From assembly GCA_041611095.1 (NCBI GenBank), contig JBFINP010000006.1, forward strand, positions 12,394-76,393: a DNA stretch of 64,000 bases, written 5' to 3'. A model generated the notes under the pieces. It searched no databases and was not told the DNA's origin. It saw only the letters and a program-made list of their open reading frames with translations. Source of the stretch: Acidimicrobiia bacterium. GTDB taxonomy: Bacteria > Actinomycetota > Acidimicrobiia > Spongiisociales > UBA5794. The translations under genes and the position numbers were made by a program. Positions 1,785 to 50,981 of this stretch are shown in pieces; within the stretch, counting starts at the first letter, position 1, and every line of letters begins with the position of its first letter.

Positions 1785-4700
1785 GTGACCCACTACGCCG
1801 AGCTCCATTGCCACACCAACTTCAGCTTCCTGGACGGTGCCGCGCATCCCCATGAGCTGGTCGCCCGGGCCGCCGAGTTGGGGTACACGGCGCTGGCGGT
1901 GACCGACCACGACGGTTTTCGCGGTGCCGTCAAGGTTCACGAGGCCGCCCGCGTTGTCGGGCTCCCCGTCGTGTATGGCACCGAGGTGGGGATGGCCCGT
2001 GGGCAGGATGACGGTTCACCCTTCGATCCGCTGGACCGCGTCGAGCCCGAGCCGAAGCCGCGGCCTCGTCGCGGTCGTATTCGCCGCATGCACGGATCGA
2101 AGCCGGTGACGAGAGAGCCCACGGATCACCTCGTGCTGCTGGCCCCCGACCCGGCGGGCTATGCAGCCATAAGCCGTTTCGTGACCCGCGGCCAGTACCG
2201 GGGGGAGAAGGACCGGCCCGTGTACCACTACGACGAGCTCGCCGAGGCGGCGCATCACGGCAACCTCGTGGCGCTCACTGGGTGCCGCCAGGGCGCCGTG
2301 CCCGGAGCGGCGCAGCGGGGCGACCTCCCCGGTGCGATGAAGGAGGCGGCTCGGCTGCGTGAGATGTTCCCTGGACGGCTCTTCGTCGAGCTGTGGCATC
2401 ACGGTTTGCCCGAGGACGACCCGCGAAACGAGATGCTCGTCGAGGTCGCCGCCCGGCTCCGGCTGCCGACCATCGCCACCAACAACGTCCACTACTCCCA
2501 TCGCCGCGACGCCCATCTGTCCGAGGTGCTCGCCGCCGTCGCCGGCAGGCGAGATCTCGCCACGGCCGACGGATTTCGACCCGCCACCGACCTGCGACAC
2601 CTGAGGACTCCCCACGAGATGGCCGAGCGCTTCACGCGCTATCCGGGGGCCGTGGCACGCGCCGCCGAGCTGGGGGAGGCGATGGCATTCGACCTCGACC
2701 TGCTGGCGCCCCAGCTTCCCGACTTCCCGATGCCCGGTGCCTTCACCACCGAAGACGAGTACCTGCGCCACCTCGTCTTCGAAGGTGCACGTGACGTGTA
2801 TCCGGGCACCGGAGAGCACGGGACCGACCCCCAGGCCGTGGTGCGGCTCGAGCACGAGCTCGAGGTCATCGCCGAGCTCGGCTTCGCCGGTTTCTTCCTC
2901 GTGGCCTGGGACATCGTGAGGTTCGCCCGCTCCCAGGACGTCTACTGCCAGATCCGAGGCTCCGGAGCCGACTCGGCGGTGTGCCGGTGCATCGGGCTCA
3001 CCAGGGTCGATCCGATCCGCCTCCAGCTGCCCTTCGAGCGCTTCCTGTCCGAGGAACGCGGGCGCCCCCCGGACATCGACATCGACTTCGAGGCCGAACG
3101 GCGCGAAGAGGTGATCCAGTACTGCTATCGGCGGTACGGCCGGGAGCGGGCGGCGATGGTCGCCAACGTCATCACGTACCGTGCCCGTTCCGTGCTCCAG
3201 GACGTCGGCAAGGCCTTCGGGCTGACCCAGGCGCAGGTGAACGCCCTCACCAAGTACCTCGACACGCACAACCCTCGACAGATCCCGGAGCTGGTCGATC
3301 TTCCCGCCGGCCTCACCTCGGAGCTCATCTATGACGTATGCAACCGCCTCGACGGGTTTCCCCGCCATCTCGGCATCCACTCGGGGGGGATGGTGGTTGC
3401 ACAACGCCCGCTGTGGGAGATCGTCCCGATGGAGTGGGGGCGCATGGAGGACCGCTCGGTGCTGCAGTGGGACAAGGACGACTGCGCTGCGATGGGCATC
3501 GTCAAGTTCGACCTGCTCGCCCTGGGGGCGATGAACGCCCTCCATCTCTCGGTCGACGCAATCCGGGACACCCACGGAGTCGACATCGATCTCGCCACCA
3601 TTCCCCAGGAACCGGTGATCTATGACATGCTCACCCGTGCGGACACCGTCGGGATCTTCCAGGTCGAGTCGAGGGCGCAGATGGCGACGCTCCCGCGGAT
3701 GAAACCCCGGACGTTCTACGACCTCGCCATCGAGGTGGCGCTGATCCGACCGGGGCCAATTCAGGGCCATTCCGTCCATCCGTTCCTGCGTCGCCGCAAC
3801 GGCGAGGAGCCGGTGCGGTATCCACATCCGGCTGCCGAATCGATCCTGAAGAAGACGCTGGGCGTGCCGGTCTTCCAGGAACAGCTCATGGAACTCGCCA
3901 GGGTGTGCGCCGGGTTCACGTCGGGGCAGTCCGACCGGCTGCGTCAGGCGATGACCCACAAGCGCTCGGACGAGGCCATGGCGACGCTGCGTGACGAGGT
4001 GTACGCCGGGATGAGCCGGATCGGTATCACCGGCGCCGCCGCCGACGAGATCTGGGAGAAGCTCCAGGGATTCGCCTCCTTCGGGTTCCCCGAGTCCCAC
4101 TCGGTGTCGTTCGCCTACATCGTCTACGCCGCGTCGTGGCTCAAGTATCACTGGCCCGGCGAGTTCTTCTGTGGTCTGCTCAACGCTCAGCCCATGGGGT
4201 TCTACACACCCAACTCACTCGTTCAGGATGCCGTACACCACGGCGTCGTTGTGCTGCCACCTGACATCAACCGCTCGGAGTTCGACTGCACGATGGAGTT
4301 GGTGGACGCCGACGAGGACGACATCGCCGAGTACCTGGGCATGCGATGGCGGCGGGGGAGGGGCGCCGTCGACGACCCACTGCGTCCGGCCGTTGCGGTG
4401 AGGGTCGGCCTCCGTTATGTGCGCAACCTCGGCGAGACGGAGATAAGCCGCATCGAGGCGGCGCGGATGGTGGGGGGAGTCTTCGGGACCCCCGAGGATC
4501 TGGCACAACGCACCGGCTTGCAGCTCGCATCTCTGGAGGCTCTGGCTGCGTCCGGCGCCCTCGTACCGCTGGGGCTCGGTCGCCGTGAGGGGATCTGGTC
4601 GGCGGGGGCCCTCGCCGGGATGGGGCCGGACCGTCTGGCGCTGGCGCCGGGTACCTCGTCACCCGACTTGCCGTCGCTGACCCGGCCGGAGTCGGTTCAG

Positions 4701-5087
4701 GCAGACCTGTGGTCGACCGGGATCTCGGTCACGCATCCCGTCGCCTTCCTTCGTCATGCCCTCGGCGAATCCGGCTGCCTGACCATTCGGGATGCTCTTG
4801 CTCTCCGACGTCACGGCTTCCGTGCGCGGGTAGGCGGTATCGTCACCCACCGGCAACGACCGGGAACGGCGAAGGGGGTGCGCTTCCTCAACCTGGAGGA
4901 CGAGACGGGCCTTCTCAACGTCGTGGTCCTGCCCCAGGTGTGGGAGGCGCACTTCGAGATCGCCCGAAAGGCGGTCGGGGTCGTCATCGAAGGCGTCCTC
5001 GAGCACCGCGACGGTGTGACCAATCTCGTTGCCCACCGCTTCGAGCACTGGCCCGTCGACGGCATCCGCAGCCGCGACTTCCGATAA
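1785..5087 (+). CDS. dnaE2: Error-prone DNA polymerase DnaE2
   Basis: PHP motif YAELHCHTNFSFLDG, catalytic PDIDIDF, OB fold, C-terminal SRDFR signature of DnaE2, LexA box upstream. Confidence 0.95.
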   Translation: MTHYAELHCHTNFSFLDGAAHPHELVARAAELGYTALAVTDHDGFRGAVKVHEAARVVGLPVVYGTEVGMARGQDDGSPFDPLDRVEPEPKPRPRRGRIRRMHGSKPVTREPTDHLVLLAPDPAGYAAISRFVTRGQYRGEKDRPVYHYDELAEAAHHGNLVALTGCRQGAVPGAAQRGDLPGAMKEAARLREMFPGRLFVELWHHGLPEDDPRNEMLVEVAARLRLPTIATNNVHYSHRRDAHLSEVLAAVAGRRDLATADGFRPATDLRHLRTPHEMAERFTRYPGAVARAAELGEAMAFDLDLLAPQLPDFPMPGAFTTEDEYLRHLVFEGARDVYPGTGEHGTDPQAVVRLEHELEVIAELGFAGFFLVAWDIVRFARSQDVYCQIRGSGADSAVCRCIGLTRVDPIRLQLPFERFLSEERGRPPDIDIDFEAERREEVIQYCYRRYGRERAAMVANVITYRARSVLQDVGKAFGLTQAQVNALTKYLDTHNPRQIPELVDLPAGLTSELIYDVCNRLDGFPRHLGIHSGGMVVAQRPLWEIVPMEWGRMEDRSVLQWDKDDCAAMGIVKFDLLALGAMNALHLSVDAIRDTHGVDIDLATIPQEPVIYDMLTRADTVGIFQVESRAQMATLPRMKPRTFYDLAIEVALIRPGPIQGHSVHPFLRRRNGEEPVRYPHPAAESILKKTLGVPVFQEQLMELARVCAGFTSGQSDRLRQAMTHKRSDEAMATLRDEVYAGMSRIGITGAAADEIWEKLQGFASFGFPESHSVSFAYIVYAASWLKYHWPGEFFCGLLNAQPMGFYTPNSLVQDAVHHGVVVLPPDINRSEFDCTMELVDADEDDIAEYLGMRWRRGRGAVDDPLRPAVAVRVGLRYVRNLGETEISRIEAARMVGGVFGTPEDLAQRTGLQLASLEALAASGALVPLGLGRREGIWSAGALAGMGPDRLALAPGTSSPDLPSLTRPESVQADLWSTGISVTHPVAFLRHALGESGCLTIRDALALRRHGFRARVGGIVTHRQRPGTAKGVRFLNLEDETGLLNVVVLPQVWEAHFEIARKAVGVVIEGVLEHRDGVTNLVAHRFEHWPVDGIRSRDFR

Positions 5088-5233
5088 TTCGCTCGAAGCG
5101 GGCTTCGAGCGAGTTGAATCGTCGGCCTCTCGGCCGGCCCGTTGTGCGGTGCGGCGGCGGAGCCACCGCACCGCTGATCGAGGGGGTCGCGGAGCGTCCC
5201 CCTCGAGCTCCCCTGGCTCACTTTCGCATCGCT
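5088..5233. repeat. Structured intergenic repeat, copy A (five stem-loops)
   Basis: About 80% identical by hand alignment to the reverse complement of 50157-50303, with compensatory changes in the stems. Confidence 0.85.
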
Positions 5234-5450
5234 TTCCGAATGGCTCCCCTTTAGGGGGAGCTGTCCGATCGGGCGTTAGCCCGAGCGGACTGAGGGGGGC
5301 GGGGGCGAGGCGTTCGGCGCGCATAGGTCGAGCGGCCCGATTCGGGGGGGATCGCTTCTGGGGGATCGGGGGGCGCGGTACACTCGCCTTTCTTGCTGTC
5401 GGCCGCATCGGGATGTGCGATGGGGCTGCTGAGAGGGGGAAGGAACAGCA

Positions 5451-6371
5451 ATGACCACTGAGGCCGTGCAATCGCGAGTCGTCGACCAGCCGGTGTTCTT
5501 TCCGCCGGATGAGAAGACGTACTTCGGTTTCGCCACGTTGCCGGCAGAAGGGCCTGCGAGCACGACGGCGGTGATCCTGTTGTCGGGCACGCACACGGGG
5601 TCGACCACGATGGGCCGTAATCGCATGTGGGTGAAGGCCGCACGCACGCTGGCCGGCCGCGGATATCCGACGATCCGCATCGACTATGCGGGTCTCGGGG
5701 AGAGCCTGTCGGGCGGACCCATCTACGACCTCGAGCTGCCCGCCGTCCATGCGTTCAACGAGGCGGTCGAGCAGATGCGGAGCTATGGCGCCAGCCGGTT
5801 CGTCGTCGTCGGCACATGCTTCGGCTCGCGCACGGCGATCGCAGGAGCGGTCGAGCAGCGCGACATCGCCGGCCTCCTCCTGCTGGCACCGCCGGTCCGC
5901 AACCCGACGAAAGGCGACGGCGGTACCGATCACCTCGCCCTCTACGCATCGACGGCAGATCTCGCCAAGAGGGCGGTATCGATGCGGACGATTCGCAAGC
6001 TGCTGCGTACGAAGAAGGCCCGCTCGGTGGCGCGGCGGGTGTTCACGGGCAAGGTCCAGGCGTCGCTCGGCCGGGGACCGGCCGGTGAGGGGCAGGGAGG
6101 CGCGACCGACGCAGCCCCGGGCTTCCTCGAGCCTATCAAGCGCCTCGTGCAGCGCGGCGTGCCGATTCGTATCGTGTACGGCGAGAGCGACATCTTCTGG
6201 ACCGAGTTCCAGAAGGCGGCGGAGGGACGGCTCGGCCAGATCCTCGAACGGGCCGGCGACCTGATGCGGGTCGAGACGGTGCCCGGCATCATTCGCGGCT
6301 TCACGTCGGTCCGCATCCAGGAAGCATGCAACCAGCACGTGCTCGACTTCGTCGAGGAGTGCACACGATGA
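5451..6371 (+). CDS. Alpha/beta-hydrolase-fold protein with Cys at the nucleophile elbow (exosortase-A-associated hydrolase 1-like)
   Basis: RIDYAGLGESL and VVGTCFGSRTA (G-x-C-x-G); SD-like GGAAGGA upstream. Confidence 0.75.
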   Translation: MTTEAVQSRVVDQPVFFPPDEKTYFGFATLPAEGPASTTAVILLSGTHTGSTTMGRNRMWVKAARTLAGRGYPTIRIDYAGLGESLSGGPIYDLELPAVHAFNEAVEQMRSYGASRFVVVGTCFGSRTAIAGAVEQRDIAGLLLLAPPVRNPTKGDGGTDHLALYASTADLAKRAVSMRTIRKLLRTKKARSVARRVFTGKVQASLGRGPAGEGQGGATDAAPGFLEPIKRLVQRGVPIRIVYGESDIFWTEFQKAAEGRLGQILERAGDLMRVETVPGIIRGFTSVRIQEACNQHVLDFVEECTR

Positions 6372-50102: not shown

Positions 50103-50156
50103 GGAGCGAATGTAGTCGCCCGGCCACCCATCCGAACCCCAGTGCTCCAGCGATTC

Positions 50157-50303
50157 AGCGATGCATAGCGAGCCGGGGTGCTCGTCGGGGGTCGCTCCGC
50201 GACCCCCCACGTTCCGCGGTGCGGTGACTCTGCCGCCGCACCGCACAATGAGCCCGCCGGGAGGCGGTCGCCTGCAACTCGTCCGAAGCCTGCTTCGGAC
50301 GAA
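50157..50303. repeat. Structured intergenic repeat, copy B (inverted relative to copy A)
   Basis: Reverse complement aligns end to end with 5088-5233. Confidence 0.85.
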
Positions 50304-50318
50304 GCTAGGTTTGGGCTG

Positions 50319-50981
50319 ATGCTTGCCCCCGACTTCACGCTCCCTGATCACGCCGCCGAGGACTGGACGCTGTCCGACCAGCGCGGAGCGGCAGTGGTCC
50401 TCCTCTTCCTTCGCGGTGACTGGTGAGCCTATTGCAACGGCCAGCTGGTCAGCGTGGCGCGCAGATACGACGAGTTCACGGGTGCCGGGGCGATCGTGGC
50501 AAGCGTGAGCGTCGACTCCGTCGGCCAGAACGCAGCGATGGTCGACAAGCTGCAATTGCCGTTCCCGCTACTCTCCGATCCTGACCGGAGCGTCGCGGTC
50601 GGGCCCTACGGCGTGGCCGATCCCGTGGACGCTCGCGAGATCGCGCTTCCGACGACGGTCGTGATCGACCCCGCCGGGGCGGAGGTGTGGCGACGTTCCT
50701 CGACAGACTTCGCCGATCGTCCCGAAGAGGACTTGACGCTCGAGGTCGTGAACGCGCTCGACCTGCCCGCCACGACAGCGGCGGCCGTGAAGCGCGGACG
50801 GCCCGAGCCCGGACCGAAGGCGATGCCGTTCGATGCCCTGACGGCGTACTACCGCGGGGCCAAGTTTGCGGCGATCGCCATGGGCCGTCGTTTCCCCGAC
50901 GCGCGCGACACCTCCATGGCCTATGCGGCGCAAATGGACCGTTATGTCGAGGCCGTCCACCAGACGAGGGATCTGCGCTGA
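50319..50981 (+). CDS. AhpC/TSA peroxiredoxin-like selenoprotein (in-frame UGA read as Sec, UxxC)
   Basis: MLAPDFTLPD...LLFLRGDW-[TGA 50424-50426]-AYCNGQL...SVDS...FPLLSDP, one continuous thioredoxin fold. Confidence 0.85.
50433..50463 (+). promoter_or_regulatory. Candidate bacterial SECIS hairpin
   Basis: GCCA-GCT-[GGTC]-AGC-G-TGGC; the G-led apical loop starts 20 nt after the UGA. Confidence 0.6.

Follow-up and report, generated by a model that had tools for sequence, protein, structure and literature searches.

Structured interspersed repeats such as the REP, BIME, ERIC and TRIT elements are common, their spread and function are mostly unsettled, and almost nothing of the kind is on record for uncultured Actinomycetota. 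REPs are extragenic and often lie behind genes, and they have an effect on translation when they lie no more than 15 nt from a stop codon, according to passages of PMC12306157 that cite its reference 17; the same passages place about 11% of E. coli REPs within this distance. TRIT elements, in the sections of PMC3152330 relied on here, number 147 copies in Mycobacterium and keep a very narrow distance to stop codons. Here we analyse a 64,000-nt stretch of Acidimicrobiia DNA (the window; contig JBFINP010000006.1, positions 12,394 to 76,393 of the forward strand), in which 5089-5233 on the plus strand and 50157-50302 on the minus strand are two copies, A and B, of a dispersed repeat with about 60 copies in the genome. 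The repeat is a previously undescribed, modular, non-autonomous family of multi-hairpin intergenic elements, most of which start directly behind a gene. The family works like REP/BIME, TRIT and structured repeats resembling miniature inverted-repeat transposable elements (MITEs); judged by those of their defining features that were tested, it belongs to none of them.

The genome is a 3.55-Mb Acidimicrobiia metagenome-assembled genome (MAG; labelled G000) of 157 contigs, with 67.7% GC and 92.7% completeness. Copies A and B are 81% identical over 149 nt by BLASTN and have a mean column identity of 84% over 190 nt, flanks included, in a MAFFT alignment (5070-5260, plus strand, against the reverse complement of 50130-50320). 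An earlier sequence-only reading of the window had picked out both blocks as related elements with compensatory stem differences: both are present, and the differences between A and B in hairpins H1, H2 and H4 are compensatory, with H3 nearly identical, but the boundaries it gave for copy A were off. It had begun the element at 5088, a base that belongs to the flank; the similarity begins abruptly at 5088/5089, and the repeated DNA of copy A reaches 5298 by way of a tail, with steps in the coverage profile at about 5137, 5213, 5233 and 5298. BLASTN matches the block at about 40 places in the genome, and iterated nhmmer gives 68 matches, fragments counted. A covariance model of H1-H4 (cut-off E<=0.01) gives 62 matches in the 3.55 Mb, with one antisense echo and one copy split over two contig ends among them. 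Since at least four copies sit at contig ends, the repeat breaks the assembly. The copies are old: median pairwise identity among those of this genome is 0.69, and the maximum is 0.86. At gathering thresholds, Rfam 15 returned no match over the whole window; in E-value mode, 5000-5460 gave four matches, all far under their gathering scores (the best 23 bits against a threshold of 52.5). No description of the repeat was found in Rfam or in the literature searched, supplementary files (e.g. the REP/REPtron lists of PMC3733652) being outside the scope of that search. The idea of a dispersed family with conserved structure is thus borne out by the further copies, by the lack of a matching Rfam family and by covariation in two alignments, and none of the outcomes that the sequence-only reading had named as refuting it was observed.

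The covariance model was built from 14 copies with the structure of H1-H4 written by hand, and its matches were then aligned to it. Given a plain MAFFT alignment, RNAalifold found no more than parts of H1 and H3, the cause being misaligned indels; because MAFFT misplaces these, the covariance-model alignments were used for the pairing statistics. In the alignment of 50 copies from this genome, which like all such alignments leans towards the modelled structure, 89.5% of cells were paired, against 37-44% with slid partners, and double changes were seen at 28 of 41 pairs (200 cells); none of 500 shuffles reached any of the measures. For 42 distinct copies from seven other genomes the corresponding values were 91.8% against 33-53%, with double changes at 34 of 41 pairs (371 cells); four measures were reached by none of 500 shuffles and the measure 'further pair types' by 57 of them. 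H1 had 93% of its cells paired in this genome and 98.8% in the others (double changes at 6 and 10 of its 10 pairs, respectively), and H2 had 96.7% and 95.7% (double changes at 4 of 5 pairs across genomes). Double changes were found at 12 (this genome) and 11 (other genomes) of the 13 pairs of H3, and at 9 of the 13 pairs of H4 in both alignments. H1-H4 are therefore strongly supported by covariation in the own genome and in other carriers. A fifth hairpin in the sequence-only reading, H5 (GAGC/GCTC), did not hold up: 48% of its cells were paired, against 31-64% with slid partners, and its 5' arm, which lies in the 3' arm of H4, reads CAC(A/G)C in many copies, with no matching change in GCTC.

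Loops are the best conserved part of the unit, with a mean pairwise identity by column of 0.78 against 0.73 for stems and 0.60 for linkers, and the order is the same in the other-genome alignment. The C-G-closed GGA triloops that had been noticed from the letters are indeed present and conserved in H3 and H4 (18 and 34 of 50 copies, respectively, have GGA). It had also been observed that non-canonical pairs favour neither strand, and this is confirmed by the counts of G-T and A-C mismatches: 58 vs 73 in the 50 copies of this genome and 40 vs 41 in the 42 copies of the others. Folded as RNA, 5085-5300 gave -136.8 kcal/mol (z = -6.7), with a similar z for the opposite strand; with DNA parameters the copy A region also folds far below shuffles (z = -7.3).

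The 5' end of the element is tied to the ends of genes. Copy A starts (TCGC, 5089) one base after the TAA (5085-5087) of a DnaE2-like polymerase gene, whose longest ORF (open reading frame) runs from 5' position 1665 and whose product has 1100-1140 aa. For the genome as a whole we used our own simple codon-bias gene caller (3328 genes, 91% coding) and a placement set made from the 68 nhmmer matches minus 13 without a 5' end and one duplicate at a contig junction; the set yields 55 5'-complete copies, and 53 have an upstream gene on their contig. That gene is co-oriented in 41 of the 53, against 40% for random intergenic points, and 29 of the 53 start 0-9 nt after a co-oriented stop, where 3.4% would be expected (binomial p ~1e-28). 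Three further copies lie 31-35 nt behind a stop, with an extra solo H1 in between. Two seemingly 'opposite' copies actually come right behind tRNA-Thr (5 nt) and tRNA-Ser (9 nt), and in relatives copies lie 5 nt behind tRNA-Tyr and tRNA-Ala (two genomes); overall, four copies in three species follow tRNA 3' ends at 5-9 nt. Behind one tRNA-Ser copy come a canonical hairpin and a T-run, so that this copy would lie inside the transcription unit. In G022, a genome of another genus (3 contigs, 96% complete), copies start 3-7 nt after the stops of ordinary genes, and across the other genomes 12 of 42 copies lie 2-7 nt behind a long ORF.

The genes so followed have little in common. The 25 upstream genes tested were mutually unrelated housekeeping genes (among them those for an ABC ATPase, 3-hydroxyacyl-CoA dehydrogenase, pirin, DinB, ribosomal protein L9, HPPK and OTCase), and their C-terminal Pfam domain was complete wherever known. 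Copies show almost no overlap with predicted genes, and the remaining intergenic DNA lies on the element's downstream side. The possibility that the element supplies the stop codon was ruled out: H1 lies anywhere from 0 to 9 nt behind the stop, the C-terminus and stop of DnaE2 are as in four relatives, and the upstream C-terminal domains are complete. H1 is preceded by four GGTT-like bases: in a genome of about 16% T, 40 of 54 copies have T at -1 and 33 have it at -2. As empty sites lack GGTT, it belongs to the element. Two side observations concern the neighbours. In the same-genus genome G002 a copy lies between tRNA-Tyr and tRNA-Thr in a Tyr, Thr, Met tRNA cluster (L083:1412-2067); sited inside the cluster, it would belong to a polycistronic tRNA precursor. 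Both error-prone polymerase genes seen, the DnaE2-like gene (1785-5087) and a DinB/IMS-family gene (L002:247-1494, G000 C15), directly precede a copy, which may be coincidence.

The core of the element consists of four hairpins, H1-H4, in a fixed series and a C-run segment behind them; a tail or a further repeat, T2, may come after it (Table 1). The hairpins within a unit all differ and keep one order and orientation. GGTT usually precedes H1 and GTT follows it; the H1 loop is CGGG in copy A and CAGG in 40 of 50 copies. Only some copies have CGTC in front of H2. Two sequence versions of H3, unrelated to each other, form a hairpin at the same place, and H1 variants combine with either; since the same H1 variant occurs with both, modules reassort. 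The 3' end varies: copies stop near model positions 34, 55, 90, 130-135, 149 or 197, close to hairpin borders. The two ends of the element (GGTT-H1 against C-run/GCATCGC or CTGAGGGGG) are unrelated to each other. The tail is a separate 63-nt repeat family of 20 copies, 8 behind a core copy and 12 not, whose H7 stems visibly covary among copies; copy A is accordingly a composite of a core module joined to a tail module. In the minimum-energy fold of 5085-5300, the C-run at 5207-5214 pairs with a G-run at 5293-5300 and so encloses H6 and H7. A mini-ORF in the tail (ATG...TGA) was rejected, as it is not conserved and loop indels shift its frame.

Table 1. Coordinates of copy A, its neighbouring genes and copy B in the window
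Feature	Position	Strand	Description	Basis
Upstream gene	1785..5087	+	DNA polymerase III alpha-type (DnaE2-like)	ORF list, gene caller, Pfam PHP, DNA_pol3_alpha, finger, HHH_6, OB
H1	5089..5112	+	10-bp stem, 4-nt loop; constant 5' end of the family
H2	5121..5138	+	short GC hairpin, core CGGCC-TCTC-GGCCG	fold
H3	5146..5174	+	13 pairs, GGA triloop, one conserved C-A mismatch	fold
H4	5178..5206	+	13-pair G-run/C-run hairpin, GGA triloop	fold
C-run segment	5207..5233	+	C-run and conserved GGCTCGCTTCGCATCGC segment, end of core module	alignments, fold
Tail module	5236..5298	+	H6 5242-5262, H7 5263-5289, terminal CTGAGGGGG	coverage profile, fold
Downstream gene	5451..6371	+	alpha/beta hydrolase	gene caller, Pfam
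Copy B	50157..50302	-	core module only, H1 at 50302-50279	alignment, covariance model

The third repeat, T2 (GATCCCCC..GGGGGATCGCAGAGCG.AGCGATGCGAGGGGGG..GGCCGCAGGCCCGAGC), adjoins cores in either orientation, for example at L024:1653-1766 (G000 C18), C66:732-820, C1:28517-28612 and C22:13736-13811, and part of it can pair with the GCATCGC segment of the core. In G002, five T2-like matches of about 52 nt each, spaced exactly 121 nt apart, form a tandem array (G002:C7:202325-202859).

Compared with these features, the known families each match in part. REP and BIME elements are likewise high-copy extragenic palindromic repeats, often placed behind genes and co-transcribed, with a short tag beside the hairpin and with mosaics, as far as the passages of PMC12306157 and PMC3733652 describe them. 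A REP, however, is a single 20-40 bp palindrome with a GTAG or CGTC tag and not a unit of about 145 nt with four hairpins and GGTT, and its distance to the stop codon is looser than the 0-9 nt found here. REPs in a BIME alternate in orientation with defined linkers, whereas here order and orientation are fixed; in a REPtron the RAYT gene is flanked by repeats, whereas no RAYT was found in the six genomes searched here. TRIT shares the phylum (Actinomycetota), the copy number of about 150, the tight stop-codon position and the conservation of both sequence and structure, and its authors suspect a binding factor, to go by the same sections of PMC3152330; these describe a single, largely bidirectional palindromic hairpin that lies within the coding end, around -8, and report it from Mycobacterium only. 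The Acidimicrobiia element differs in position, with a start at +0 to +9 after the stop, is oriented and has four to seven hairpins. The CGTC-tagged and 'untagged' REPs resemble it in having no dedicated transposase and in being probably transcribed and acting as RNA elements, but the CGTC-tagged ones are short single stem-loops found mostly as head-to-head dimers (PMC3733652, in the part drawn on here). A MITE derived from a DDE transposon differs by its inverted repeats and target duplication, neither of which was found here. BOX (boxA-B-C), ERIC and Correia elements are 100-200 bp long, non-coding, folding, modular, intergenic and co-transcribed, and can alter mRNA stability or termination; they have terminal inverted repeats and usually target duplications, again in contrast to the Acidimicrobiia element. 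BOX, ERIC and Correia elements are not known to be tied in this way to the first few bases after stop codons and tRNAs. Among structured repeats the present family is an unusually clean case: an ordered unit of four to seven hairpins, two independent covariation sets, loops more conserved than stems, and a start locked to gene ends in several genera.

From place and sequence, we consider it about an even bet (roughly 0.5) that the family is a REP/BIME/TRIT-like non-autonomous repeat, formerly mobile and now mostly resident, which would be transcribed as a structured 3' trailer that shapes transcript 3' ends. Its past spread may have been due to a trans-acting activity or to recombination, and it would no longer be multiplying fast, because no two copies exceed 86% identity. 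Place and orientation suggest that transcripts of the upstream gene run into it, so that it would form the beginning of their 3' trailer, both in mRNAs and in tRNA precursors. There the stack of hairpins would most likely shape the 3' end by blocking 3'-to-5' decay, by RNA polymerase pausing or weak termination at H1-GUUUG, or by both. In protein genes, H1 close to the stop may also affect the terminating ribosome, as with the REPs within 15 nt of a stop; since copies are placed behind tRNAs as well as ORFs, a general role at transcript ends would fit better than one in translation alone. To judge by the conserved loops, a specific binding partner may exist. A CsrA sponge acting through the GGA loops was rejected, as no CsrA gene was found. 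Taken together, 5' anchoring, a modular 3' end and the attached tail point to a transcript role, or at least to placement tied to gene ends. If the element does act in transcripts, it would provide dozens of unrelated genes with a ready-made 3'-end module in a lineage where canonical terminators are scarce.

A number of points weigh against a 3' trailer. Co-transcription and an RNA role are read from position alone, and compensatory changes in palindromes can arise without selection, via intrastrand template switching. The balance of G-T and A-C mismatches means that the stems have no transcribed-strand signature, and H1, an almost perfect palindrome, would equally fit recognition as DNA. An intrinsic terminator consists of a GC hairpin and a U-tract, whereas no canonical U-tract lies behind any hairpin of the element: GTTTG, the commonest tail, follows H1 in 12 of 50 copies, and the next 7 nt hold at least 3 T in 29 of 50 and at most 5 T. 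A simple terminator scan of 4900-5600 flags no site in the element. Of the 53 copies, 12 do not follow a co-oriented gene, and copy B is one of these: it occupies a divergent promoter region, with a minus-strand LOG-family gene about 55 nt downstream of it. Selection on 3' ends alone does not explain a 5' end within a few bases of the gene end. Finally, the closest analogue, TRIT, overlaps 2-4% of 3' ends mapped by Term-seq in M. tuberculosis, by the portion of bioRxiv 10.1101/2022.06.01.494293 used here.

A selfish MITE-like element would account for the same repeats without any host function: it would prefer the first bases after gene ends as a target, its hairpins would be recognition features of a mobilising enzyme, and pairing would be kept by gene conversion or palindrome self-correction. 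We regard this as unlikely. Among 41 related genomes screened with the covariance model, copy number ranges from 0 to 58. The own genome has 58 copies, G022 has 47, G003 (same family) 21, G001 (same genus) 10, G015 (same family) and G035 (other family) 4 each, G002 (same genus) 2 and G007 (same family) 1; in 33 other genomes of the same family or order there are none. An exact 27-mer of H1 was found in four stretches among 185,579 species genomes, all of them Acidimicrobiia/Acidimicrobiaceae MAG records, and in no phage or viral contig. As far as searched, the repeat is confined to some genera of Acidimicrobiia. Elements in G022 form arrays and inverted pairs between genes, and whole-unit inverted pairs are seen in these arrays only. 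Filled and empty sites were compared, as the sequence-only reading had proposed, and at each of the three loci tested the element is missing from same-genus genomes. Two same-genus and two other-genus genomes have an empty DnaE2 site, with the C-terminus (...SRDFR*) and stop position identical; the copy B site is empty in both same-genus genomes, and the tRNA-Thr site in one (G002, 92 nt). At the tRNA-Thr site G001 has an unrelated insert of about 958 nt (G001:C120:7801-8758). Contigs from four public DNA runs over 4300-5900 confirm the filled form and show no junction that skips the element; they break inside the repeat. One contig record from another study (X6, 4606-5136) spans the gene to H1, and records of the study that is the possible source of the genome span the right side.

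Such empty sites, the GGTT that they lack, the uneven copy number, the G022 arrays and the reassortment of modules are what a mobile element would leave behind. However, the element has no terminal inverted repeats that we could find, and none of the three filled/empty comparisons shows a target duplication, though the intergenic DNA there has diverged. A duplication that included the tail end was considered, as CTGAGGGGG resembles some left flanks (TGAGG..TT), and rejected, because copy A is among the copies that depart from this pattern and because solo tails keep the same end. Nor was any candidate enzyme found. Moreover, there are no young copies, yet about 90% of pairs and the loops are kept, which is hard to reconcile with some 60 scattered neutral copies, and the conserved C-A mismatch in H3 argues against simple self-correction.

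Alternatively, and with a still smaller chance of being right, the anchoring may reflect polar placement of DNA at the first bases behind a stop codon or tRNA 3' end, in the orientation of the gene, with a fixed GGTT-H1 end and a copy length that stops at successive hairpins. If so, such placement, with no Y1, Y2, TnpB, rve or RT (reverse transcriptase) gene found in the own genome and neither Y1 nor Y2 in the main carriers, would imply a process coupled to transcript ends or a one-end copying. It might be rolling-circle-like or RNA-templated, by an enzyme not yet linked to mobile DNA, with the loops as recognition points; targeting of this kind would indicate a new insertion mechanism.

One of the options in the sequence-only reading was a mobile single-stranded DNA element, which would here be handled by an HUH nuclease (RAYT/IS200-like, or IS91-like rolling-circle) with folded hairpins as its recognition feature. 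If copying were one-ended or broke off early, a fixed 5' end and 3' ends at hairpin borders would result, as observed, and the palindromic H1 with its 5' GGTT (compare the GTAG tag of REPs), the C-GGA-G triloops, the balanced mismatches and the DNA fold would all suit such an enzyme. In profile searches whose positive controls gave matches, however, Y1_Tnp/RAYT (PF01797) was absent from G000, G022, G003, G001, G002 and G015. Y2_Tnp (PF04986, IS91-type) was absent from the four carriers G000, G022, G003 and G001, with one fragment in G015, and the TnpB zinc ribbon (PF07282), RVT_1 and rve were absent from the own genome. IS200/IS605 and IS91 elements have a Y1/TnpB or Y2 gene between their hairpin ends, and none of PF01797, PF07282 and PF04986 was found in G000. 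Draft genomes can miss transposase genes, so this absence is not proof. One 4.16-Mb contig carries copies on both strands inside single clusters, which indicates that orientation tracks the upstream gene and not the replication strand, unlike lagging-strand targeting. Altogether, the HUH proposal now looks very doubtful. Other mobilisers fared no better: the single IS110-family transposase gene in the genome lies at the start of contig C32 (L107 = G000:C32:1-2035) with no element within 2 kb, and the G022 clusters hold no autonomous element, the genes in between being housekeeping ones: PNPOx, Asd, polyketide cyclase, LuxR regulators and a class-I tRNA synthetase.

We give equally low weight to a binding platform at the DNA level, as proposed for BIMEs with gyrase, IHF and Pol I, in which hairpins, cruciforms or loops would bind a nucleoid or topology protein. 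That loops are the most conserved columns and that mismatches carry no strand signature would be expected of it, and the G022 inverted pairs, where they lie between convergent genes, would form long cruciform-prone palindromes. Such a platform needs neither a fixed orientation to the upstream gene nor a start 0-9 nt from the stop, and stems that vary freely with pairing kept fit a folded single strand better than duplex recognition.

A free-standing multi-copy small RNA family with its own promoter is highly improbable: conserved structure and loops and the missing Rfam match would make it an undescribed family, but a start 0-9 nt after the stop leaves a promoter no room, no promoter-like site was seen in 4900-5600, and the 3' end is variable. 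The sequence-only alternative of an undescribed noncoding RNA family thus survives in so far as Rfam has no match, while a cis-acting 3' trailer is more likely than a free-standing RNA gene; an RNA derived from the 3' untranslated region and released by processing is possible.

In practical terms, the repeat breaks assemblies and makes a good clade marker. One further feature of the window lies close to copy B. On the plus strand, 50322-50981 encodes an AhpC/TSA-type peroxiredoxin-like ORF with an in-frame TGA at 50424-50426, in the motif GDW-TGA-AYC (a U-x-x-C redox motif). The fold of 50421-50490 contains no convincing selenocysteine insertion sequence (SECIS) hairpin. The in-frame TGA is also present in both same-genus genomes, and a SelA gene lies on contig C88; the ORF is probably a selenoprotein split by table-11 ORF calling.

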